The notes beneath the pieces were generated by a model that searched no databases, had not been told where the DNA came from, and saw nothing but the letters and a program-made list of their open reading frames with translations. Of a stretch of 64,000 bases of DNA, positions 51,952-63,878 are shown piece by piece. Position numbers and translations under genes: made by a program. Origin of the DNA: a virus. The stretch is taken from IMG/VR virus record IMGVR_UViG_3300037155_000096. The stretch is one strand, 5' to 3'. How positions within the stretch are numbered: the stretch's first letter is position 1; every line of letters begins with the position of its first letter.

Positions 51952-53712
51952 TCATTCGAAATACTTCGATGCATCTACTCTACCTTCTGAATCATCTTCC
52001 ACGCCACCACCGAAACTTGACCTCTTTCCTGAAATCTTGATACCTTTCTGCATCTCAAGGATCTGAGACATGAGCTTTTTCATATCCTTAAATTTTTCAC
52101 CATTGACATAGTTACTGTCCATGATTTCATTTAATCTCTTGTCGAGATTTTTCTCCCTTACCGCCCATTCGCGGGAATTACGTAATTTATCCTCTCTACC
52201 AACCAACATCGCTTCCCTTAACATGTTGCCACGAGTGTATGTGGATTCTTCTGCTGGTGGGCTTGCCTGTAATGCAGCGTTTTGAGCCTTCAGATCCGCA
52301 CTTACCTCACTGGTCTTCTGTCTGAGCACTACCTTAGCATCTGCTTCCGCCATACCCAGTATCCTTGTTAAAATCCATTCCTTAGAGACGAACGGATCTA
52401 ATTGAGCGGCAAGAGCCACCTTGGTATTTTCTACTTCCAGATTGGCTATCTCAAATGCCGTCGATGGGACAGCCATTTTAAGAGTATAGTCCAATTTTCT
52501 GTAGTCGACGCCCCTTATCGAGTAATCTACACCGATAATCTTATTATAACCGACCAGCAGCTCCCTCTGAAGCCTTAATACCGTTCTTGCGAAACGGATA
52601 TCTTCGTTGGAACCGGCTGTTCTGGAATCTGCCGTTTCATCGTAGGTCAGGAATCTCTTGGGAATCTTTAATCCCGCGAATTCTTTATTCCTGTAATACG
52701 ACAATTCATCAAGGCTCTGGTAATCCAGTGCTGGAAGATTCTCTATTCTGGTCGGATCTTTCGAGTCGCGTACACCAACCCAGATATCTTCCTGCTGAGC
52801 GAGCGGATTCGTTGAGAACTCCAACTTGCCCGTTCTTGGATTGATATAACTCTTCTTTCGATACTCTCTCTGAAGTTCTTTCATGAAGGCTTTGGATTCC
52901 TTCGGTGACTTGTTGCCAGTATTTACATAATAAACCAGTCTGTTGGGAGATCTCGTAATCTTATACAGTATCGTGGCGTCCTCTAACAACTGTAACCGTT
53001 TCCATGCCCATCTTGCGTTCTCGGCTAATCCGAATCCATATCTGCTTCCGCGATTCTTGGTCCTGAGTCTGAAATGAATCATCTCCCAGTTATCGAAGAA
53101 GGTCGAGGACTCCTGATGTCTGACATTCCCGGCTACCGCATCAATAACTTCCTGATCTTTGTAATTGAACTTGCCCTGGTAATCGACACCAAATGCTGTC
53201 TTCCCACCGACTTCATATCTCCTGGCAATAGCTGGACTAATAAAGTCAAGACCATTAACGCCCTTATCATCATACAGGATGGCTTCAAAATCATTACCGT
53301 ATTTTGCAATCGTTCTGGCTTGTTCCCAAATATTCTCTTCTACCTTCAGGGTATTATCAAGGAAGTTATTCAGGTACGTCCTCGTAGTATCATCAAGCGA
53401 GTCCACCCACATGGTTTTCTTCAGCTTATAATCCATCTGGGTTGCATCATCAGCGTAAATATCGTATGCGCTTCCTATGATGGGATCGCTATCATCCATA
53501 TTTTCGTAATCGATATATCGGGTGATCAGATCCTGACTTACCTTCAAATGTTCATACAAGTCTTCATAGCCGTGTCTGACATACAACGATGACGCTGCTC
53601 CGCCTGCTGCTACTCGTACTGGAGCTTGACCTGTTTTTGGATCTATTGCCGGCGTGTCAGTCTGATCGCTGAACAGTAACTTTATAAAGCCTAAATTCTT
53701 AATTCCTGCCAT
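51952..53712 (-). CDS. Portal protein (T4 gp20-like)
   Basis: YENMD.SDP.I..AYDIYADD, IHFRL, WKRLQLLEDA.ILYKITRSP.R and LKIPK motifs. Confidence 0.95.
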   Translation of the reverse strand: MAGIKNLGFIKLLFSDQTDTPAIDPKTGQAPVRVAAGGAASSLYVRHGYEDLYEHLKVSQDLITRYIDYENMDDSDPIIGSAYDIYADDATQMDYKLKKTMWVDSLDDTTRTYLNNFLDNTLKVEENIWEQARTIAKYGNDFEAILYDDKGVNGLDFISPAIARRYEVGGKTAFGVDYQGKFNYKDQEVIDAVAGNVRHQESSTFFDNWEMIHFRLRTKNRGSRYGFGLAENARWAWKRLQLLEDATILYKITRSPNRLVYYVNTGNKSPKESKAFMKELQREYRKKSYINPRTGKLEFSTNPLAQQEDIWVGVRDSKDPTRIENLPALDYQSLDELSYYRNKEFAGLKIPKRFLTYDETADSRTAGSNEDIRFARTVLRLQRELLVGYNKIIGVDYSIRGVDYRKLDYTLKMAVPSTAFEIANLEVENTKVALAAQLDPFVSKEWILTRILGMAEADAKVVLRQKTSEVSADLKAQNAALQASPPAEESTYTRGNMLREAMLVGREDKLRNSREWAVREKNLDKRLNEIMDSNYVNGEKFKDMKKLMSQILEMQKGIKISGKRSSFGGGVEDDSEGRVDASKYFE

Positions 53713-53713
53713 A

Positions 53714-54829
53714 TTAGCTTAACCTCTTTTTCAGGTCTTCGAAGACCGCTATCAAATGTTTACAAACTTTCTTTTTCATTCCTGGGTTGGTCTTTAACGG
53801 TGGCTCCATGATCGAATTTACTATATGGCTTGCGTTGGTCTTCCATAAACTGTATTCATTTTCAAATGTGAAATTTTCGCAGTTGCAATGCAGTATTACA
53901 TTCTGGCTGATCGTAGTTAATCCCTTAACATTCGGCAGAGGCTTTATATACTGTCTGTGAACGTGATGGTTACTTTCTGTAACCGTCTTATAAATTAACT
54001 TGCCAGCTTGGGTGATGTTCAGAAGTGTCGGTTTAATATCTTCCGCCCGCAGCTTAAAACGCCTGGGCGTTGTTTTCATTAACTGAGCTATACTTCTTTC
54101 TTCCATCATAGCTTGAATCAAGGACTCTACCAGTCCCCATTTACCGTCAGCATATTTCTGAAGATTCTTGAGCTTAATATCTTTCTGTTTCTTCAGACGT
54201 TCGCTCTGAATGGTCGTGATAAGCCCAGCAATCTTATATTTCAGATTCTTGACAGCTTCCTTATCGGAAGATGCTGTAGTCTCGATATAACCGTCTTTGT
54301 TGGGAGTCTCATCAGTGCGGACTGCATTAGTGAACGCTTTATACATGACTACTTCTTCCTCCACGGCATTCTTCTTCAGAATGTAAGTCATATACTCTAT
54401 CCCCTTACTGGTATGCATTTCAGTTTTGTCCAGCTTGAAGCCTTCGTTCTCTGCGAACTTATCGATTAACGCTTTATAAAGCTTGGCTCTGGAGTTCTTG
54501 CCGCCCTCTTCATACTTCGCGATAATCCAGATCTCCTCAATGGTCTTCACCTTCTTCACATAATCTTTTGCGATCTGGATTACCGTGGATAGTATTCGGA
54601 ATGCATCACCCTTTCCTGTAACTTCAGCCGAGCCCGCATCATCATCAAAATGAATTGCGAACGACTTACCGTTATCCCTGATTTTCGTTAAGACTTTGAA
54701 TGGCTCTCTACCGTCCGGCTGGAAGGCGAGAGTACGAGTACCGTCTCCGGGCAGTAAATTCCCCAGATACTTGTAGGGCTTCGCAAGAACCTCTATCAAC
54801 AGATCTAATTCTGAACTCATCGTTAACAT
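53714..54829 (-). CDS. Multi-domain protein with C-terminal SWIM-like zinc finger
   Basis: N-terminal TGKGDAFRILSTV...SRAKLY domain; C-terminal CNCENF...VCKHL. Confidence 0.7.
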   Translation of the reverse strand: MLTMSSELDLLIEVLAKPYKYLGNLLPGDGTRTLAFQPDGREPFKVLTKIRDNGKSFAIHFDDDAGSAEVTGKGDAFRILSTVIQIAKDYVKKVKTIEEIWIIAKYEEGGKNSRAKLYKALIDKFAENEGFKLDKTEMHTSKGIEYMTYILKKNAVEEEVVMYKAFTNAVRTDETPNKDGYIETTASSDKEAVKNLKYKIAGLITTIQSERLKKQKDIKLKNLQKYADGKWGLVESLIQAMMEERSIAQLMKTTPRRFKLRAEDIKPTLLNITQAGKLIYKTVTESNHHVHRQYIKPLPNVKGLTTISQNVILHCNCENFTFENEYSLWKTNASHIVNSIMEPPLKTNPGMKKKVCKHLIAVFEDLKKRLS

Positions 54830-54955
54830 ATTTTATTTCACATAAAGTCATATCGTTGACATCCGTTCTTGCTTGCCTTATCCCATTCAAATCTTTACTT
54901 ATAATCACTGCATAATACGTGTCGTGTTATATAACACCAATAACCGTTCCAAGAT

Positions 54956-55045
54956 TTACTTCGCTGGTACCGGCTCTGGTTTCTTTTCTAACTGCTGGAT
55001 GATTTCGTCCAGCTCTACAGTTAGGTCTTTCAGTTCAGTTGCCAT
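54956..55045 (-). CDS. Micro-ORF (29 aa, not in ORF track)
   Basis: AAGGAG RBS; MATELKDLTVELDEIIQQLEKKPEPVPAK*. Confidence 0.6.
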   Translation of the reverse strand: MATELKDLTVELDEIIQQLEKKPEPVPAK

Positions 55046-55061
55046 AACATTTCTCCTTATT

Positions 55062-56225
55062 TTAATCTACTTGAACAAACCCATCAAAACCTGAATCGCC
55101 CTCATCGTCAGCCTCCGCCGAAGCACTTATTCTTTCGCCCGGCTTACTTCTCGATGACTCCGAATAAAATGAAGTCCCTTCACCTGGGTATTTCGTCGCC
55201 AGCGTGAATACTACCGCAGCGATTGCGTCGCTTACATCCTTTGAATAATCATCGGGATGGTCGACTTTTCCCTTATATGCATTAAATTCTAATCTTCTTA
55301 ATTCTTCCTGAGCCGGCTGATACGGGTACATTTTTAATCTGTCTTCATATAATGTTTGCTTCAATGTATCATAAGCCTTCATCGGACGGTCTACCGACAC
55401 TACTTCCGACTCGTATCCGCGGGCTTTGAACGCCTGGATGCTGTCCGCAGACTGGTACGAATCCATCGATATGTATCTTATGGGCATTCCCATTTCATGC
55501 AAAGCGTATATCAACTTCCTGATATCCTGGAAAATTATATCTTCTCCCATCCTTGGATGAATCCTTAACATCAGGTCGATTTGAATCAGCGGGCGTGTTT
55601 CCACCGTTACTATCGGACCGACCTTTTTCCGGATCTCTTTGTATCCGTAAATGTGCCCTATTGCTAAACCCGTGGCATCTCCCCTCAATGAAGCGTCAAT
55701 ATGGACATGACGGGATGCCTCTGGGTGAAATCTTGGTACTCTTTCACCAAACTCGTTAATCTTAAATAATGCTTCTGTCAGGAACTTACCTCTGTCAGTC
55801 ATATCCCAGACTTCCTGAGTAAACGGATGCTGATAACTGTCATCGACTGCATCCATGATCTTCTTGCGGTTCCTTATGAACGGCGTAATAGCCACCGTAC
55901 TTACTCCGGCAAGATCTCTCAATGCTGTATCGGTATCTCTCATAAAATCATCATAGAAGTCCATGGGTACATCGATAATCTGAACTTCTTCCATACCCTC
56001 GTATTCAGTGACATCTTCTCCATCTTCCAATACCTTAGAAGATAATACTGAATTACCGACCAGCACCTTAAACCTCTCAGGCATGAATATCTTAGCATCC
56101 TTAGCTCCCCACTGACTGTTATGGACTACTAATCCATTCGCCAGCGTGAAATTATGGCAACTGTCTTCCTCGATATCATAGACATCTTCATTACCATCAA
56201 ATTCTATCTTTGCGATACGCTTCAT
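55062..56225 (-). CDS. terL: Terminase large subunit C-terminal part, preceded by split-intein C-fragment
   Basis: Starts with a 36-aa IntC ending VVHN|S. Then an RNase H-like nuclease: HVHIDASLRGDATG, ISMDSYQS, SKDVSDAIA. Confidence 0.92.
   Translation of the reverse strand: MKRIAKIEFDGNEDVYDIEEDSCHNFTLANGLVVHNSQWGAKDAKIFMPERFKVLVGNSVLSSKVLEDGEDVTEYEGMEEVQIIDVPMDFYDDFMRDTDTALRDLAGVSTVAITPFIRNRKKIMDAVDDSYQHPFTQEVWDMTDRGKFLTEALFKINEFGERVPRFHPEASRHVHIDASLRGDATGLAIGHIYGYKEIRKKVGPIVTVETRPLIQIDLMLRIHPRMGEDIIFQDIRKLIYALHEMGMPIRYISMDSYQSADSIQAFKARGYESEVVSVDRPMKAYDTLKQTLYEDRLKMYPYQPAQEELRRLEFNAYKGKVDHPDDYSKDVSDAIAAVVFTLATKYPGEGTSFYSESSRSKPGERISASAEADDEGDSGFDGFVQVD
56118..56225 (-). mobile_element. 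Split intein C-fragment (IntC, 36 aa)
   Basis: Block F VYDIEE and block G HNFTLANGLVVHN; Ser+1 nucleophile at 56115-56117. Confidence 0.93.
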
Positions 56226-56226
56226 G

Positions 56227-56556
56227 TTATTTCAAGAATCCCGCTATTGCCTTGAGTTCTTTCGCAGAGAATATCCATTGCGATTGCTTGCCATTGAATT
56301 CCCCAATGAACCTGATACTGCCATCCTTTAATTTCTCCATGGTAGCATTGTCCAATACCAATACTTCTATAGTGCCGGCGTTCAACACTGGTTTCCCATC
56401 ATCACCAACGATAGTATCGCCCAGTTTCAATTTCGAATAAACTCCTTTCTCCGCCAATCTCTTTTCCTCCATAATCGAAGGGATCAAATCTTCCGGAACT
56501 TTCCCACCCAGTATTTCAAAATCTTCTGCCAGCGAACTTATTTTAACCTCTTTCAT
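56227..56556 (-). CDS. Hypothetical protein between the terminase halves
   Basis: 109 aa; N-terminus ISSLAEDFEILG resembles LTSLDEDLIALG of the prohead core protein. Confidence 0.7.
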   Translation of the reverse strand: MKEVKISSLAEDFEILGGKVPEDLIPSIMEEKRLAEKGVYSKLKLGDTIVGDDGKPVLNAGTIEVLVLDNATMEKLKDGSIRFIGEFNGKQSQWIFSAKELKAIAGFLK

Positions 56557-56565
56557 AACTTCTCC

Positions 56566-57057
56566 TTATGCTGCTTCTTTTTTAATAAATAACTTGTAAT
56601 ACGCCTTCAGATAGCCACCATACGTGCCTGTCGCTACCGCCAACTTGTTCATTTCGCTGTGGCTATACGTTATAACCTTGAAATAAACGTCCTTCTCAAC
56701 TTCTCTTTTCAATACCAGCTCGCCCGTCACATCGAAATACTGACCTTTGTAGACGTTGAAAGCATGGTCAATCGGTATTCCGACTATATCTGCGAAGCCC
56801 TCGACATATTCGACTCCCGATATGTGCGAAGCCACCTGATAAGCATTCTGGTAACACTGCTTCGCCTGGAACATTTTGATCAGCCTATAAACGTCATTGG
56901 CTATTTCAGGGATCTTCTCTACCGAGACAACCTTCACCGCCTTCACTAATTTCGCCTGCCATGCATACAGATCTGAATCGCCAGTATAAAGTTTCGATAT
57001 CATTTCCAGATGGCTCTTGGGCGACTCTTCCGCTATATTAAAAGCTGAACAATTCAT
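56566..57057 (-). CDS. Transglutaminase/papain-like Cys-His-Asp protein between the terminase halves
   Basis: KQCYQNA (Cys), YVEGFA, IPIDHAF (His), YFDVT (Asp). Confidence 0.7.
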   Translation of the reverse strand: MNCSAFNIAEESPKSHLEMISKLYTGDSDLYAWQAKLVKAVKVVSVEKIPEIANDVYRLIKMFQAKQCYQNAYQVASHISGVEYVEGFADIVGIPIDHAFNVYKGQYFDVTGELVLKREVEKDVYFKVITYSHSEMNKLAVATGTYGGYLKAYYKLFIKKEAA

Positions 57058-57331
57058 CGCCCACCTTTAAGTTCTGAAGTTCCACATAAGTTAAATCGTT
57101 CATAAGGAACGGATGCTCCTTCGTAGCTCTCACTACAGAGCCATCTTCCATCGTGATTTTATAAACAGGGACATTAACTCCTGTCCGCTGAGCTGAATGC
57201 CCTTTACCCAGAACGCCCTGACCCGTGGCTGGATCTACCGATACGGTCCTAAAATTCTCAACGCCGACTAAATCTTTAATAGCAATTATGCCCTTCAGCG
57301 GGATCTTAATCGGAGTGTCGCCAGTTAAGCA
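57038..57331 (-). mobile_element. Split intein N-fragment (IntN, 97 aa)
   Basis: Block A CLTGDT, block N2 VYKITMEDG, block B ATKEHPF, ending LKVGDELFSF*. Confidence 0.93.
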
Positions 57332-58225
57332 ATATTCTCTTACGAATACGTTGGGATCTTCTCTTGCCTCAGCAATTCTTCTTTCAGTAAAATCGGTCGT
57401 GGTTCTTTTGGATGAAACCAGAAACAATTTCCCTGGCATTTTTCCAAACTTGTTAAACCGGGACTTGATTCTACGACTTACCTGAGCATATAGTAACTCT
57501 GCATTATCTACATGACCATGACGGGCATGTGAAGCCTTCATTTCCTTGCTCATAGCTCCCAAGAAGTTCGACTCATCCATGATTGCACCGATTGCGTTAC
57601 TTCCTATACCTGCATTTGCCGTACTGGAAGCTGGAGTCGCCCATACGTTATTCGGGAATCTTATTTCCTTCTGAGTCAGTTTCGGTTTGAACTTCTCATT
57701 GAAATACGGACTCATCGTGAGCATACCCTGAAGATCTTCGAAGATTACTTTACGAGCAGTCTGCTCTGACAATGAAATCGCCAGGAATGCTATCAGGGAA
57801 TCAGGAGCCAATCCAAAAGACTTCTGCGGATTGCGTAAACAGCTCATCTCATAGAACACTCTGCAGGCAGCTATTTTAGCCATGTAGGTCTTGCCCCAGC
57901 CGAGTGAACCAGTTAAAATAACTTCATAATACTCTCCATTGAAGAGTTCTATCATGTCGTCAATTAGCTTCGGCCATAGATTATGCACCTTCCCGAAGTG
58001 GTACGGATCTGTCAACCATGTTTCGATATCCACCATAGGTTCTTGGAACTCTAATTCGTTCATTAGTTCAAGTAACCCAGTTTTACCGCCGGTCATTTCA
58101 GCCATAATAAGTTGCATCACTTCCATCTCTTCAGGTGAAAGTGACCTTACATCCCTCTTTAGAAGTTTCTGTACCTCCTCCGGAGTCTGTTTACTTATAT
58201 TACGACCATCAATGAGTTCTATCAT
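57038..58225 (-). CDS. terL: Terminase large subunit N-terminal ATPase part, ending in split-intein N-fragment
   Basis: Walker A GSLGWGKT, Walker B AIMDESNF, motif LVSS, then EY|CLTGDT. Confidence 0.92.
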   Translation of the reverse strand: MIELIDGRNISKQTPEEVQKLLKRDVRSLSPEEMEVMQLIMAEMTGGKTGLLELMNELEFQEPMVDIETWLTDPYHFGKVHNLWPKLIDDMIELFNGEYYEVILTGSLGWGKTYMAKIAACRVFYEMSCLRNPQKSFGLAPDSLIAFLAISLSEQTARKVIFEDLQGMLTMSPYFNEKFKPKLTQKEIRFPNNVWATPASSTANAGIGSNAIGAIMDESNFLGAMSKEMKASHARHGHVDNAELLYAQVSRRIKSRFNKFGKMPGKLFLVSSKRTTTDFTERRIAEAREDPNVFVREYCLTGDTPIKIPLKGIIAIKDLVGVENFRTVSVDPATGQGVLGKGHSAQRTGVNVPVYKITMEDGSVVRATKEHPFLMNDLTYVELQNLKVGDELFSF

Positions 58226-58230
58226 TGGGA

Positions 58231-58305
58231 CTATTTCTTTTTATTAGTCGCGATTCTTTCAAGACTTTGAATAATCTCAGTCATTTCTTTTATTAGGTCT
58301 TTCAT
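58231..58305 (-). CDS. Micro-ORF (24 aa, not in ORF track)
   Basis: AAGGAAG RBS; MKDLIKEMTEIIQSLERIATNKKK*; ends 5 nt before the terL start. Confidence 0.55.
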   Translation of the reverse strand: MKDLIKEMTEIIQSLERIATNKKK

Positions 58306-58314
58306 AGTACTTCC

Positions 58315-58443
58315 TTATTTTATTAGTTCATTTAATGTCGAATAATGCGTTGCAATAGCTATCAGAATTAGAACCATCGAAAACAAACCGACAGCCCCAA
58401 TCGTTGTTAGCCCAAACCCTATAACCCGTAAAGACTTGTTCAT
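58315..58443 (-). CDS. Small single-TM membrane protein (42 aa)
   Basis: The ATG overlaps the stop of the T9SS gene (ATGA); MNKSLRVIGFGLTTIGAVGLFSMVLILIAIATHYSTLNELIK. Confidence 0.55.
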   Translation of the reverse strand: MNKSLRVIGFGLTTIGAVGLFSMVLILIAIATHYSTLNELIK

Positions 58444-59207
58444 TTCAGTAACACCATTTTGATTGCTGCCGTATGCTGATTTCCGTTTGCCCGCTTGGTC
58501 GTCATTGCGAGGATATACACGCCGGCGTACCGACCGCGCCATTTGACCTCGTAACTGCCCTGTGTGCGCATTTCATCTGGGAATGACTCTATCTTACTCC
58601 CGATGACATTATAGACCGTCAGTCTTACCTTACAGTCATAGGGGAGCGAATATCTGATCGTCGTCTCTTGATTAAATGGATTCGGGTAGTTCGACACGGT
58701 AAATTCCTTGGGTAACATTGACACCACGATAATATTCGAATGCACCGAGCCACCATCGTTGTCCACCTGATTCAGGCGATAAGCAATAACCCCTGCCATG
58801 GAGAGCTTATCTGAGAACATATACTCTTTACCCTTATTGCTATTCCCTTGGGCCGCCACGAAGCCGATCTTCTCCCAGGGACTGCCCATCCAAAGTTTTC
58901 TTTCTATCTCAAATCCATGAAAATTTACTTCCGTCGCTGTCACCCACACAAGCTCAACGTAATTGTCTCTTAAAGTTTTCCCCTTAAAAGAGATCAGTTG
59001 CACTGGTAGCGGCTCCTGATACTGATAAGCTCCAAGATCCGGATGATTATAAGGCACTGGATTTCCCAGTATATCCGTCTTAATCCGTTGTCCATTTACC
59101 TTTACGGTATCGCCAGCACCTCTACATGGGCTATTCCACTGAAGCTGCTGCGAAAACATCTGGCACGACAAAACAACTATTAGCCATATCCATATCATCC
59201 TTTTCAT
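58440..59207 (-). CDS. Secreted protein with type IX secretion (type A) C-terminal sorting domain
   Basis: Signal peptide; a choice-of-anchor-Q-like remnant (SPCRGAG...TDILG...PDLGAYQY); a PLPVQLISF...YRLNQVDNDG Ig domain; CTD NYPNPFN..TTIRYSL...YNVIG...GVYIL...KMVLLK. Confidence 0.9.
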   Translation of the reverse strand: MKRMIWIWLIVVLSCQMFSQQLQWNSPCRGAGDTVKVNGQRIKTDILGNPVPYNHPDLGAYQYQEPLPVQLISFKGKTLRDNYVELVWVTATEVNFHGFEIERKLWMGSPWEKIGFVAAQGNSNKGKEYMFSDKLSMAGVIAYRLNQVDNDGGSVHSNIIVVSMLPKEFTVSNYPNPFNQETTIRYSLPYDCKVRLTVYNVIGSKIESFPDEMRTQGSYEVKWRGRYAGVYILAMTTKRANGNQHTAAIKMVLLK

Positions 59208-59986
59208 ACGCCTACGTTCTCCAATACTTCTTCATTCTTTTCTGTTACTTGCAATTCTATCATCGCCGGCTTTTCTTCTGCCTGGACTTCCGCAAGAAGA
59301 CCTGCCACATCCCCAGCCCTTATGGACTTGAATAAACTCTCAGCCACTCCTAATACCTTGGAAACTGCTCTTGGATCGTTAAGCACTTTGGCTACCGAGT
59401 CTTTCCCATACTTCAAACCGAAATCGGTTATTAACTTTTTTCTTACTGCCGCTTCTTCACCCGGATTACCCTTGTTCACTCCCAGATCTCCCATTATCGC
59501 AGCAAGATCTCTTAACAGAGCTGCGGCTATCGCAATTTCATTTCCTGTTGTCTTAAACAACTTGTTTAATTTCTTTTCTGTACCGACATCAATATTGATA
59601 CGCCCCTTCTGGATCGCATAAAGCTCCTGCATCTCAGCCATGATATCCAGACCTGCATCAATCTTCTCTTTTGCCTTGATTACTTCAGCCGGCATACGAA
59701 TAGCCACCGTCTCCAGTGGCGTCAATGCTTTTCTGAACGAATTCAGGTGATCGATTAACTCTCCCTTAGCCATGCCCAGACCTGCATATTCCGCCGGGTA
59801 AGTAGTCTCGATGTAGTCAGCCACTCTTGTTGACGGCCAGCCCGCCTGTATTCTGGCTTTCAGCTCGGGGAAACACGTCAAAGTTTCCAGGGACGCCTGA
59901 TGGCTCTCCGGTTTCTTCGCAGACGGTCTCCTGAACACTCCGTTAAAACTTGGCAATCCACTGCCTTCTGGGTTAATCTTTACCAT
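59204..59986 (-). CDS. Probable terminase small subunit
   Basis: Helical 260-aa protein with an N-terminal HTH-like region and coiled coil, upstream of terL. Call rests mainly on position. Confidence 0.5.
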   Translation of the reverse strand: MVKINPEGSGLPSFNGVFRRPSAKKPESHQASLETLTCFPELKARIQAGWPSTRVADYIETTYPAEYAGLGMAKGELIDHLNSFRKALTPLETVAIRMPAEVIKAKEKIDAGLDIMAEMQELYAIQKGRINIDVGTEKKLNKLFKTTGNEIAIAAALLRDLAAIMGDLGVNKGNPGEEAAVRKKLITDFGLKYGKDSVAKVLNDPRAVSKVLGVAESLFKSIRAGDVAGLLAEVQAEEKPAMIELQVTEKNEEVLENVGV

Positions 59987-59994
59987 TGACTTAT

Positions 59995-60345
59995 TTATTC
60001 ATCCCCGGTGGGTTCATCTTCGTCAAAGACTCCGCTTTTTTCCAAGTCATCTGCTAATTTCTGTTCATCAGCATCATGCCCCTGTCTTCTTTTGAAGTCG
60101 GCGAGGGAAGTACCTAATACATCCTGTGCTTTTTCGGGATCTACTACGTTGAATATGAGCATAGCCTGGCTCCTCGTATCATAGTAAGCAGCCAAATCCT
60201 CAAAACTTGTATATTCGGTATTCATCGGCTTAACCCCTTCATCGGTGTCGATGTAGTTCACGACGACGCCGTCCTGCAGTCTGAAATATTCACTGCACAC
60301 CACTTCGTTATCGCTATTAAAATACAAGAACGCTATTTTTTCCAT
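59995..60345 (-). CDS. Hypothetical acidic protein
   Basis: 116-aa ORF in the operon. Confidence 0.65.
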   Translation of the reverse strand: MEKIAFLYFNSDNEVVCSEYFRLQDGVVVNYIDTDEGVKPMNTEYTSFEDLAAYYDTRSQAMLIFNVVDPEKAQDVLGTSLADFKRRQGHDADEQKLADDLEKSGVFDEDEPTGDE

Positions 60346-60354
60346 AAACCAACC

Positions 60355-62940
60355 TTATTTTTTCAATACGTTATTCATTATCTCGGATTTGTATTTCATA
60401 ATCGCACCCTCAAAACCCACGTCCATCATGTTCCTCAAATTCAGCCTGATGGCTTCTTTGATATTCGGTCTTGTGCCGGTCGGACAGAAGGAATCCAGCA
60501 TCCCATCTTCGTTGTCGCTGAACTCTGTCAACATTCCAATTATCTCGGGTTCGTAGTTGACGCCGACTTCACCATAAGTTCTGTAATCGAACGCAGGCAT
60601 GAATACTCTTTCAACCCAGCTATAACAGCGTTCATCTTTTGCATACTTCTTGGGGGGATCAAGCGCCAGTTCCCTTATCATAAATGACAGGATCGGTTTG
60701 CGGTCCATGAATCCGAAAGCCAAGTCGTTATCGAGGGCAATCAGTTTACCACTGTCTTTAATTATTCCTACGTTGTCAGTGAACCTGTCCTGCTGATAGG
60801 ACATGAAGTCCGCTACTACCAGCCTTTTTATGTCATCGCCGGAGATCTTCTGGATTATCGCCATTGCTGCGTCCTGCCCCTTAGCCTTTGGCTTGGCCAA
60901 ATCCTGACATACGATGAAGCTCGGTAAGAATTCAGCCATCTCAGCATCGAATATCTGGTTCTGTTTCTTTTCGTTTCTAACTTCCACGCCCTTGACATTT
61001 AACTCCCCTCCGCTAAGCTTGATCTGCTTGACCATCGGAGTGCCTACGCCGACTCTATTAAAGAAATCAGCTGTGCTTTGACTTATCGGACCGGTTTCAG
61101 TCTGACTGTGATGTCTTATCTTAAAAAAGAAATCTGTTCCGCCTAATTCAGCTTTGAACGTTGTATTCGCCCCACCGTTGACAATCTTGATTTTCTCAAA
61201 GCTGCCGGCTCCATCGGTACAAACCAGTTCGGCTGCTTTTGCAAATTTTAATTGTTCATCCAGAGGAATATCCATCTTGACGCCCGCCTTCATAACATCC
61301 AGAGTCGCCGCTGTAACTATTTTATCAGCATCCACCGAACCATCTTTTACGGAGGAAATCAACCCGAGGAAATTCACCTTGAATTCTTTACCGTTGATAT
61401 CTCCCTTAGCGTCCGCTTCTTCCTCCTTCTGCATCTGGTCTGTTAGGAACTGTGTGAACAAGTCCTCTGTTTTGAACGGAGAGACCTTGATGGCTTCATT
61501 TAATATGCGCTGCACACTGTTTTCAGCCAGAGTGGGATTCATCTCCTTCAATTTGGCTGAATAAAGTATCTTCATAAATTTGATTTTCTGGATCGGCATT
61601 ACTGTCGGCGTGACTCTCAAAGGCAGATTGTAATTCTTCAGGAAATCCGTAAGCTGTTTTACCGGATAAAGCAGTTCGACTGTCTTCGTAACCCACGTAT
61701 TATAGAGAGCAGGATTATCTGCGAGTAACTCAGTGAAGTATCTGGTCGCTGAACCTAACGGGATCTCAAGGAACGCCAGCCACCCATATCTGGACTGGTT
61801 GAAGGATGTTTCCTTCAGGTAGTTAATCATCTTGTCCTGGATAACTCTTGGGAACATCTTTCCCCAGTACAGAGCTATTGCATAAAACAAAACACCCCTA
61901 TTTTTATCTCCCTTCAGACCTGAGAAATCGAATTTTTCAAACTTCTCCTGATGCGCTGCTATTACCTTCTCGGCATGAGCATTGTCGCTGACCAGATCCA
62001 AAGCTGTCATCTCTTTGTTTTTCTTGGACAATGCGAAATAAGTATTCTTATCCCCCTTGAAATACAGTGGTACGTCCTCTGCGCTCCATAACGAGTTAAT
62101 CTGGTCTGCCAGTGTTTTGTCAGATATTCCCCGTGACATTACATTTTTACCTGGTGTCACCGGAACTTCATCTTTCGGATCCACTATGTCCAGAGCCGTA
62201 TCGATAACATCGCCGAAATATGGCTTGTAAACGTCCTTCCTTAGTTGCTCCCACTTGTCTTTGAACCCAGTATACCGGCTCGTACCCTGTGTGGATTCAT
62301 CTGAGGCATTGTTAATCGCGAGGTAAGCTGACGAATTGGCAATATCGTAGAACGTGAACGTATTCGGATCTCCTATAAACCCCTTTTTCTTAGCTTTCAG
62401 TACGAATAATCTGTGTTCGAAGCCAAATCTCCCCATTCTTCTATCCAAGCCGCCCACTGTCCGGAGCATTTGCTTGGTGGTCGTTATCCACGTGCCGTAA
62501 CTCTTGCCTGAAACCCTCAACTGGACTCCATTCATCTCGATAACTTTGCCCCTGACATTGACGTTCTGGGTAAAACAATGAATTCCCGTTGCCAGGAATG
62601 CGTCCATGTACTTCTTGAAGACAGGACTCTTAATCTTTATATAATCATCATTTAGCAGGAATCCGAAGTCATACAACTTTAATACATTCAGGACTCGATT
62701 TGAATTGGCTGATACGCCACCGTTTTTCTCCGCGAATTGCACTACGGCATTCGGGAATCTTTTCTTGAACTCCTCAAGGAGAGCATATTTCTCTTTGTTA
62801 CCGGAAGCATCTTCCACCACTATGATTTTGTCGCAACTGTTGACATCCGCGCATGCCGCCAGCGTGTCCATGAATTCCTTAAATACTGCCGGTCTGCTCC
62901 ACGTAATAATGCCTATAGCCCACTTCAACCCTCTATACAT
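60355..62940 (-). CDS. GT2 glycosyltransferase fused to HipA/PI3-PI4-kinase-like domain
   Basis: N-terminal IGIITWSRP..VVEDAS..NGGVSANSN..LLNDD..GGLD (GT-A fold). C-terminal FFFK...DFMSYQQDRFTDN...LIALDNDLAF (kinase). Confidence 0.8.
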   Translation of the reverse strand: MYRGLKWAIGIITWSRPAVFKEFMDTLAACADVNSCDKIIVVEDASGNKEKYALLEEFKKRFPNAVVQFAEKNGGVSANSNRVLNVLKLYDFGFLLNDDYIKIKSPVFKKYMDAFLATGIHCFTQNVNVRGKVIEMNGVQLRVSGKSYGTWITTTKQMLRTVGGLDRRMGRFGFEHRLFVLKAKKKGFIGDPNTFTFYDIANSSAYLAINNASDESTQGTSRYTGFKDKWEQLRKDVYKPYFGDVIDTALDIVDPKDEVPVTPGKNVMSRGISDKTLADQINSLWSAEDVPLYFKGDKNTYFALSKKNKEMTALDLVSDNAHAEKVIAAHQEKFEKFDFSGLKGDKNRGVLFYAIALYWGKMFPRVIQDKMINYLKETSFNQSRYGWLAFLEIPLGSATRYFTELLADNPALYNTWVTKTVELLYPVKQLTDFLKNYNLPLRVTPTVMPIQKIKFMKILYSAKLKEMNPTLAENSVQRILNEAIKVSPFKTEDLFTQFLTDQMQKEEEADAKGDINGKEFKVNFLGLISSVKDGSVDADKIVTAATLDVMKAGVKMDIPLDEQLKFAKAAELVCTDGAGSFEKIKIVNGGANTTFKAELGGTDFFFKIRHHSQTETGPISQSTADFFNRVGVGTPMVKQIKLSGGELNVKGVEVRNEKKQNQIFDAEMAEFLPSFIVCQDLAKPKAKGQDAAMAIIQKISGDDIKRLVVADFMSYQQDRFTDNVGIIKDSGKLIALDNDLAFGFMDRKPILSFMIRELALDPPKKYAKDERCYSWVERVFMPAFDYRTYGEVGVNYEPEIIGMLTEFSDNEDGMLDSFCPTGTRPNIKEAIRLNLRNMMDVGFEGAIMKYKSEIMNNVLKK

Positions 62941-62985
62941 AGCCCAATCCCATCGTTAGTTCAAAAATCTGCCCATCGTTTCGGC

Positions 62986-63723
62986 CTAGCTATTGCCGGC
63001 TGCCTTCTGCAATACTTCTAATAATTTTCCGTTCAACTGCGCTGGATCTTCGTTGATCTGCATCTCATCAAAAAACTTGAATACTTTCTTGTCCACATCC
63101 ATGAAAAACATCTTGCTCCCCTCGAAATCGAATATCATGTAGCCACGGCTATTCAGGGTTTCCCCGTTCTCTGAAAATATCCCATTCAGGATGCGACTTA
63201 AATTCTCTATGGACTTATCTTCGCCAGCTTCTTCCCATGCCTTGTCAATTTGCTCTTCCGTGAAGCCGTTATCTTTTAATTCTCTCTTAATAGCCTTGGT
63301 TACCGCCTCCCATTCAGTCTCATCAGTGAATCCGAAGAGGTCCTGTAACGATTCTTCTCCGTACTTCTCAGCCATTTCCTCATATAAGATTCGGAATTTG
63401 TCAGGATCTAATTCTCCCGACAGCATGTTAAGTTTCACTGTCAAGAATTTTTGTACGTCCTCTGACTTGAACTGAGCATCTGCCAGCACCACGCAGGGAA
63501 GTTCATGAAAACCCAGTTTCAGGGCGGCTTTATATCGGTGTGCTCCGCCTATAATCCTGAATTTCCCATTATCCAACGGTACGACCTGTATGGCTGCAAT
63601 AAATCCGGATGTCTGTATTTCTTTAAGTAATCTCTCGAATGCCTTGCCATCCATGGAATTCGGATTAAATTCGTTCTCCTCTATCTGTGTTATCGCTACA
63701 AATCGTATATCGTGGTCAATCAT
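62986..63723 (-). CDS. ParB/Srx-like N-terminal domain protein
   Basis: ENEFNPN...GF..AIQV...FRIIGGAHRYKAA; the ATG at 63723 is the likely start. Confidence 0.85.
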   Translation of the reverse strand: MIDHDIRFVAITQIEENEFNPNSMDGKAFERLLKEIQTSGFIAAIQVVPLDNGKFRIIGGAHRYKAALKLGFHELPCVVLADAQFKSEDVQKFLTVKLNMLSGELDPDKFRILYEEMAEKYGEESLQDLFGFTDETEWEAVTKAIKRELKDNGFTEEQIDKAWEEAGEDKSIENLSRILNGIFSENGETLNSRGYMIFDFEGSKMFFMDVDKKVFKFFDEMQINEDPAQLNGKLLEVLQKAAGNS

Positions 63724-63878
63724 ATTATCCTGCAATCAATTTCGTCGTGTGAATAAATCTATTTGTCAGTATTATCATTGAGGCTTGCAGGTATCAGACC
63801 GGTAAGAACACCGGGAAGGGCTGGCTAAATCAAGAAGACGCAATCCACGGGAATATGCGTCTTTCGAATCTAAGTGCA

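Follow-up and report, generated by a model that had tools for sequence, protein, structure and literature searches.

The large terminase (TerL) gene described here lies in DNA of an uncultured virus, the IMG/VR record IMGVR_UViG_3300037155_000096. The whole stretch of 64,000 nucleotides is called the window, and all coordinates refer to it. In this window the only large terminase gene that can be detected is broken in two. With high probability the break is due to a split class 1 intein, and the two halves of the terminase would be joined after translation by protein trans-splicing.

The Split Terminase Locus

The genes of the window all lie on the minus strand and resemble a phage structural module. 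The split terminase locus consists of four of them, tightly packed, which encode proteins of 395, 163, 109 and 387 amino acids (aa). The outer two carry the parts of the terminase (the exteins) together with the N-terminal and C-terminal halves of the intein (IntN and IntC). The features of the locus are as follows.

57038..58225, minus strand: gene 1, 395 aa; a 298-aa N-terminal part of TerL that ends in NVFVREY, followed by the 97-aa IntN (CLTGDT...GDELFSF) and then TAA.

57332..58225, minus strand: N-extein of TerL, 298 aa; Walker A (GSLGWGKT), Walker B (..MDE) and C-motif strand; ends in NVFVREY.

57041..57331, minus strand: IntN, 97 aa; Cys1 (in CLTGDT) and block B T70-K-E-H73; TAA stop at 57038-57040.

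56566..57057, minus strand: gene 2 (gap gene 1, open reading frame ORF2), 163 aa; overlaps gene 1 by 20 nucleotides.

56227..56556, minus strand: gene 3 (gap gene 2, ORF3), 109 aa; has its own AGGAG ribosome-binding site.

55062..56225, minus strand: gene 4, 387 aa; the 36-aa IntC, which ends in GLVVHN, followed by 351 aa that begin with SQWGAKDAK.

56118..56225, minus strand: IntC, 36 aa; block F VYDI..CHNF and block G VVHN (penultimate His, terminal Asn).

55062..56117, minus strand: C-extein of TerL, 351 aa plus stop; begins with Ser+1; RNase H-like nuclease motifs HIDAS..D, DSYQS and VDHP..KDVSDA.

Cys1 of IntN is residue 299 of the 395-aa gene. The second terminase gene reads MKRIAKIEFDGNEDVYDIEEDSCHNFTLANGLVVHN/SQWGAKDAK from its N-terminus through the splice point, which is marked here and below by a slash. 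Between the TAA of gene 1 (57038-57040) and the ATG of the IntC gene (56223-56225) lie 812 nucleotides, and both genes are on the same strand. The stop codon of gap gene 2 ends 1 nucleotide ahead of that ATG. When the two terminase genes are spliced in silico, the product has 649 aa and the junction VREY/SQW. These values reproduce those of an earlier reading of this DNA, the original prediction, which had given intein halves of 97 and 36 aa, a gap of about 810 nucleotides and the same product and junction.

The Two Intein Halves

Both halves are recognized by hidden Markov models of inteins. IntN is matched by the NCBIfam model TIGR01445 (intein_Nterm) at residues 299-374 of gene 1, with 33.7 bits against a cut-off of 24.5 and an E-value of 5e-8. 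IntC is matched by TIGR01443 (intein_Cterm) at residues 14-37 of gene 4, with 21.2 bits against a cut-off of 15.6. The Pfam model PF14890 (Intein_splicing), which has 155 positions and a gathering score of 35.8, gives 27.0 bits for IntN (model positions 11-92) and 19.0 bits for IntC (positions 122-155).

The catalytic positions of a class 1 intein are all present, namely C1, T70, H73, VYDI, CHNF, H35, N36 and S+1. The catalytic residues of the two halves are unchanged in all variants of the locus that were compared. A recount of charged residues agrees with the original prediction that IntC is net acidic, with 8 D/E and 3 K/R; IntN has 11 D/E and 10 K/R.

The nearest relatives of solved structure are, for both halves, the DnaE split inteins. 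IntN aligns to 7qil and 1zde. The alignment with the 36-aa IntC of Npu DnaE (4lx3_B) covers all of IntC, which also aligns to 7qil.

A closer relative is found in another terminase of the same kind, P0002 (locus L008, Logan SRR19193838). It has a contiguous mini-intein of 137 aa at the same VREY/S site (FVREY/C...HN/S). IntN and IntC together align with it from end to end, at 47% identity over the full length, with a single 4-aa gap just past the split point. This alignment places the split at the canonical loop in which endonuclease domains are inserted.

The two halves are also predicted to associate. A complex prediction for IntN with IntC scored 0.75, while the best control scored 0.00; at least 95% of contacts agreed between runs, and the partner had a local confidence score (pLDDT) of at least 76. 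The mark applied to such predictions is attained by 51 of 78 solved complexes and by 2 of 108 mismatched pairs. Since solved split-intein complexes exist, the score shows likeness to them and may reflect memory.

Judged by its sequence, the element is a true class 1 intein that is split by nature. Trans-splicing of the terminase is to be regarded as very likely.

The Terminase and the Position of the Cut

Relatives of the spliced product exist in one piece. Searches of 5.8 billion proteins returned dozens of homologues of 600-690 aa, and the spliced product is collinear with 15 unsplit homologues, with no gap at the junction. The closest one-piece homologue, P0003, has 652 aa, no intein and 62% identity. 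At the junction it has the sequence FVREYSQWGAKDAK, identical to the predicted ligation product. A profile of the unsplit homologues matches the N-extein at positions 1-300 and the C-extein at positions 295-628.

Family searches by sequence identify the protein weakly. The best matches are PHROG 9 at an E-value of 2e-4 and GpA_ATPase at 0.06-0.13, and the precomputed Pfam family is PF27249 (MJ0330_N). The profile of the family found nothing useful among PDB sequences, and a fold search was required. An AlphaFold2 (AF2) model of P0003 (pLDDT 82) has the large terminases of HK97, D6E, Sf6 and T4 (gp17) as its top Foldseek matches, with E-values of 1e-12 to 1e-15. Matches to isolated domains, both ATPase and nuclease, were obtained as well, including the terminase nuclease domains 5m1f and 5tge.

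Nine residues are invariant in 19 homologues: G106, G109, G111, K112, E218, D439, D517, D584 and D592. They cover Walker A, Walker B and the acidic residues of the nuclease, and all are present in the two fragments of the window. Going by the modelled fold of P0003, the exteins make up a genuine two-domain large terminase, with an ATPase of the additional-strand, catalytic-glutamate (ASCE) type and an RNase H-like nuclease.

The claim of the original prediction that a naturally split intein fractures a large terminase is thus upheld: both intein models score above their cut-offs, the catalytic residues are present and the homologue has a terminase fold. The two tests that it proposed for the proteins, a search with intein models and an alignment of the spliced product to unsplit homologues, came out in its favour. 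Its division into an ATPase gene and a nuclease gene holds in part. The nuclease is indeed in the second gene, but the cut falls inside the ATPase domain, past the strand that succeeds the Walker B and C-motif strand, and the second gene encodes the remainder of the ATPase domain as well. Because the cut is within this domain, neither fragment alone should work, and splicing would presumably be essential for packaging.

A profile search for a second TerL in the window and in the nearest related record, of 78 kb, found only the two fragments, split at about profile position 298.

A further fragment of this terminase family was seen elsewhere. P0060 (222 aa, on 3 contigs) is an N-terminal terminase fragment, 66% identical to that of the window, which ends in ...ILDE-TIKLIIN just past Walker B and has neither Cys1 nor the beginning of an intein. 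Another type of break at the Walker B site would account for it, as would a truncated gene call.

Occurrence and Selection

At least 27 contigs from the Joint Genome Institute (JGI), European Nucleotide Archive (ENA) and Logan assemblies have the genes for 395, 163, 109 and 387 aa in this same order, with nucleotide identities of 92-98%. All or part of the stretch occurs in 20 runs from 15 studies. These are metagenomes of peat, soil and permafrost; small parts were also found in wetland samples. DNA contigs from independent soil and permafrost runs span the gene borders, and neither joints nor indels are seen in them. The locus is not an assembly artefact, a possibility for which the original prediction had asked that reads be mapped, and its layout is far beyond chance.

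Contigs of two RNA libraries bridge the stop of the N-terminal gene and the start of ORF2, and likewise the stop of ORF3 and the start of IntC. They do not cover the whole of either TerL gene, which has no bearing on expression.

No close allele of the terminase without an intein was found among the proteins searched. The split therefore looks fixed in this phage lineage.

All parts of the locus that would enter the splicing reaction are under purifying selection. The ratio of non-synonymous to synonymous polymorphism (pN/pS) between variants is 0.02-0.18 in the exteins, and 0.03-0.09 in the C-extein. IntC has 3-7 synonymous changes and no non-synonymous change. IntN has 3-5 synonymous changes and one conservative non-synonymous change (R366K or N324K).

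The divergence between variants is strongly patchy. When positions 53000-60400 of the window are compared with L001, L002, L003 and L010-L012, it ranges from 0 to 48 differences per 150 nucleotides, with long identical stretches. Such a pattern indicates frequent recombination among co-occurring variants.

The Genes in the Gap

Neither of the two genes between the intein halves is recognizable as a nuclease, so that no homing endonuclease was found there. Gap gene 1 has no match in Pfam, NCBIfam or PADLOC. Its family is large, with 391 representative clusters at E-values up to 1e-3. The majority are phage proteins of about 160 aa that stand alone; others form a domain within proteins of 900-1800 aa that also have NUDIX, Zeta-toxin or zincin domains, and these large members resemble polyvalent proteins of phages or plasmids.

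The start of gap gene 1 may be the ATG at 57003, which would give a protein of 145 aa. This alternative is considered because the corresponding ESM Atlas protein begins at residue 19.

Across 40 sequences there is no variation at three residues of gap gene 1, namely C68, H98 and D109. Its AF2 model has a pLDDT of 93. A Foldseek search of this model against the PDB gave no match at an E-value of 0.001 or better. In a VIA-align comparison the best structural neighbours are LapG, PeiW/PeiP, TglA, protein-glutaminase, arylamine N-acetyltransferases and SseI, with moderate Z-scores of 4-5.7; every one of them has the papain/transglutaminase-like Cys-His-Asp fold. On the basis of these neighbours and the invariant Cys, His and Asp, gap gene 1 is predicted to encode a papain- or transglutaminase-like protein.

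Gap gene 1 is 99.5-99.8% identical between variants, compared with 89-98% in the flanks. This low divergence was considered as a mark of recent spread or mobility and rejected, since the whole region is a recombination mosaic with long stretches of zero difference. Three homologues of gap gene 1 were inspected in their contexts, which are short contigs; where flanks are present, they are not intein halves, and there is no sign of travel with inteins.

Gap gene 2 is an orphan: the relatives found, at 92-97% identity, all belong to this phage lineage. It has no family match in Pfam, NCBIfam or PADLOC and no match in the ESM Atlas. It is under purifying selection, with a pN/pS of 0.03-0.11 (for example, 24.5 synonymous against 10.5 non-synonymous differences).

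Repeats around the insert are limited to short matches. One exact repeat of 10 nucleotides occurs 824 nucleotides apart, which is about the chance level in 1.5 kb.

Both gap genes are best read as passengers at a place where a free-standing homing endonuclease once sat. A different role may be imagined for them, either as a nuclease-free module for the maintenance or mobility of the split intein, or in acting on the terminase, for example in the timing or proofreading of trans-splicing. On this view, the fixation of the four genes as a unit, and the selection on them in all variants of the phage, would be accounted for. Such a role is improbable, and the reading of the two genes as passengers is preferred.

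Proposed Mechanism and Origin

The process would start with the transcription of the four same-strand genes, most likely together. A scan for promoters and terminators gave counts equal to those in shuffled sequence, and is uninformative on transcription units. After translation, the 97-aa IntN and the 36-aa IntC would associate to form one HINT fold.

Splicing would then follow the class 1 pathway. Cys1 would form a thioester with Tyr298, and the acyl group would be transferred to the hydroxyl of Ser+1. The terminal Asn36 would cyclise, aided by the penultimate His35. Finally, an O-to-N shift would give a normal peptide bond, VREY-SQW, in a terminase of 649 aa.

The split itself most likely arose from an intein at the same site, by interruption of the loop in which an endonuclease domain usually sits. 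The contiguous mini-intein at this site in L008 suggests that the intein of the window is an allelic version of it, broken in that loop.

Alternative Explanations

Several points weigh against trans-splicing in this terminase. The case for it is built from sequence and a predicted complex. Each intein half falls below the gathering score of PF14890, which is expected for half domains because each spans only its own part of the model. Purifying selection on the halves is equally expected if they are mere non-covalent docking modules. The contigs from the RNA libraries could derive from DNA contamination, and a contig is no proof of one continuous transcript. A second terminase is possible elsewhere in a genome of about 180 kb, as the search covered the window and the related record of 78 kb.

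Docking is also the substance of one rival model, in which the intein halves no longer splice and serve only as a high-affinity pair that holds together a non-covalent terminase of two chains. The predicted association and the selection on the halves suit this model as much as they suit splicing. A precedent is reported in PMC3045599, where a fragmented ribonucleotide reductase is assembled via protein interaction domains derived from a mobile element. However, residues that are needed for the chemistry and not for docking are all kept, unchanged in every variant: Cys1, T-x-x-H, the Asp and His of block F, the penultimate His, the terminal Asn and Ser+1. Moreover, a HINT domain of 133 aa amid the ATPase core, right past a conserved strand, would probably disturb the motor. 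Docking without splicing is therefore unlikely. The gap could instead be removed or bypassed at the level of nucleic acid, by an intron or by translational bypassing, so that one chain with a contiguous intein is made. Its location, exactly at the place of the endonuclease domain in contiguous inteins, would fit such a model. Yet no intron or other RNA family was found in 54800-58500 on either strand in Rfam at E-values up to 1, apart from one snoRNA match at chance level. The N-terminal gene is closed by a TAA, and directly past the stop that precedes the IntC gene lies an ATG belonging to that gene. The open reading frames of the gap are real protein genes, ORF3 being under purifying selection and ORF2 belonging to a large conserved family, and the RNA-library contigs retain the gap, with no joints seen. 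An intron or bypass is very improbable.

That the break is a misassembled insert, or a decaying pseudogene of an intein-containing terminase in a defective element, was considered solely because the sequence is a metagenome assembly, and no support for it was found. Order and lengths are identical in the 27 or more contigs, which come from several assemblers and sample sets, and the borders are spanned without joints or indels by DNA contigs of other runs. A dead gene is also at odds with the low pN/pS of both exteins and with the intein halves being kept. Samples of peat, soil and permafrost taken over years contain the variants, as would be expected of a phage that replicates. It is thus scarcely credible that the break is an artefact or the gene dead, and trans-splicing of a fractured terminase is the preferred model.

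The Phage and Neighbouring Genes

A T4-type portal gene lies two genes downstream of the terminase locus. Directly upstream of the terminase, at 58440-59207 of the window (minus strand), is a gene for 255 aa with a sorting domain of type IX secretion (Por_Secre_tail, a weak precomputed match). In the variant L010, a second gene of the Por_Secre_tail type adjoins the first. The presence of such a gene beside the terminase points to a host among the Bacteroidota. The phage probably has a genome of about 180 kb and a Bacteroidota host, and its habitat is peat and soil.

Farther upstream, the stretch 60355-63735 (minus strand) holds a gene for a protein of 861 aa with no recorded family and, upstream of that gene, two genes with ParB_N domains, as is also the case in related contigs.

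Significance

The locus adds a well-supported Cys1/Ser+1 pair with a canonical split, from a mesophilic phage of peat and soil, to the natural repertoire of split inteins. Its contiguous allelic relative is useful for the study of how inteins are split and for screens that look for orthogonal ligation tools. The locus and its relatives also illustrate that one divergent terminase family bears inteins at two sites, both split and in one piece. In addition, the gap of a fractured gene is open to takeover by ordinary phage genes in place of a homing endonuclease. The picture of phage DNA packaging is unchanged, since terminases with split inteins have been known since 2009.

Comparison with Known Split Inteins

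Other split inteins share the combination of catalytic residues found here. Cys1 with Ser+1 is the pairing of gp41-1, NrdJ-1 and IMPDH-1. The MCM2 split intein has it as well (PMC11766414).

Fractured phage genes with split inteins were described by Dassa, London, Stoddard, Schueler-Furman and Pietrokovski in 2009 (PMC2677866), and a gp17-like terminase was among them. The lengths in that study are 88-105 aa for IntN and 33-54 aa for IntC, and the 97 and 36 aa of the window are within these ranges. In gp41-1 and gp41-8 the interacting strands are positive in the N-part and negative in the C-part; the IntC of the window is likewise acidic, as a whole. The gp41-7 locus resembles the window in having no endonuclease in its gap. 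Unlike the loci of that study, the window has a host gene of a divergent terminase family (PF27249), and its gap holds two genes, neither of which is a GIY-YIG or Vsr-like endonuclease.

The original prediction had overstated the novelty of the locus, as a fractured gp17-like terminase, an acidic C-part (gp41-1, gp41-8) and the Cys1/Ser+1 pairing had already been described (PMC2677866, PMC11766414). The points of difference from the known split inteins of terminases are the canonical split in a divergent terminase family and the gap without a nuclease.

Characterised split inteins of phage large terminases are AceL-TerL, GOS-TerL and the engineered Cat-TerL (PMC11766414). The AceL-TerL/GOS-TerL kind includes the GOS terminase locus of PMC2677866. 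Like the intein of the window, these are natural split inteins in large terminases of uncultured metagenomic phages. They are atypically split, with an IntN of 25-37 aa, an IntC of 104-122 aa and Cys1/Cys+1 or Ser1/Cys+1 as reactive residues (PMC11766414). In contrast, the split in the window is canonical (97 and 36 aa) with Cys1/Ser+1, and its IntN is not of the very short kind. The terminase family differs as well, the terminase locus of Dassa and colleagues being gp17-like.

The cyanobacterial DnaE split inteins (Npu and Ssp; 4lx3, 1zde, 7qil) are the closest solved structures for both halves. They have the same split point, an IntC of 35-36 aa and the motif VYDI..HNF. The similarity is weak, with E-values of 0.002-0.04. 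Block G has HN in the window and SN in the aligned DnaE inteins. The +1 residue of DnaE inteins is Cys, whereas it is Ser in the window. The IntC of the window is net acidic; according to the original prediction, that of DnaE-type split inteins is basic. The halves of the window are adjacent rather than far apart in the genome.

Contiguous inteins of terminases in actinobacteriophages are the subject of a preprint by Gosselin, Arsenault and Gogarten (10.1101/2025.01.02.630785), which also reports non-canonical arrangements of the endonuclease part. What they share with the window is their host gene, the large terminase, in which phages often carry inteins. Unlike the intein of the window, they are mostly in one piece with LAGLIDADG or other endonucleases, and belong to other terminase families and hosts.

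A further comparison is with P0002 of locus L008. Its intein is inserted at the same site, and the C-terminal part of its TerL is 61% identical to that of the window. Unlike the window, it has its intein there in one piece, uninterrupted by a stop codon or by gap genes. The break in its TerL is at a second site, in Walker B (DE/TNF), where another split intein is present and a gene for a NUMOD3/TnsA-like endonuclease lies in the gap. The terminase of L008 (1852-5619) would accordingly need two splicing events, a trans-splice at Walker B (DE/TNF) and a cis-splice of the 137-aa mini-intein at VREY/S. In both L008 and L009, the split intein of the Walker B site has an acidic IntN and a basic IntC, and its gap holds a gene for NUMOD3 with a TnsA-like/PD-(D/E)XK endonuclease. 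This arrangement is the classical layout of a fractured gene.

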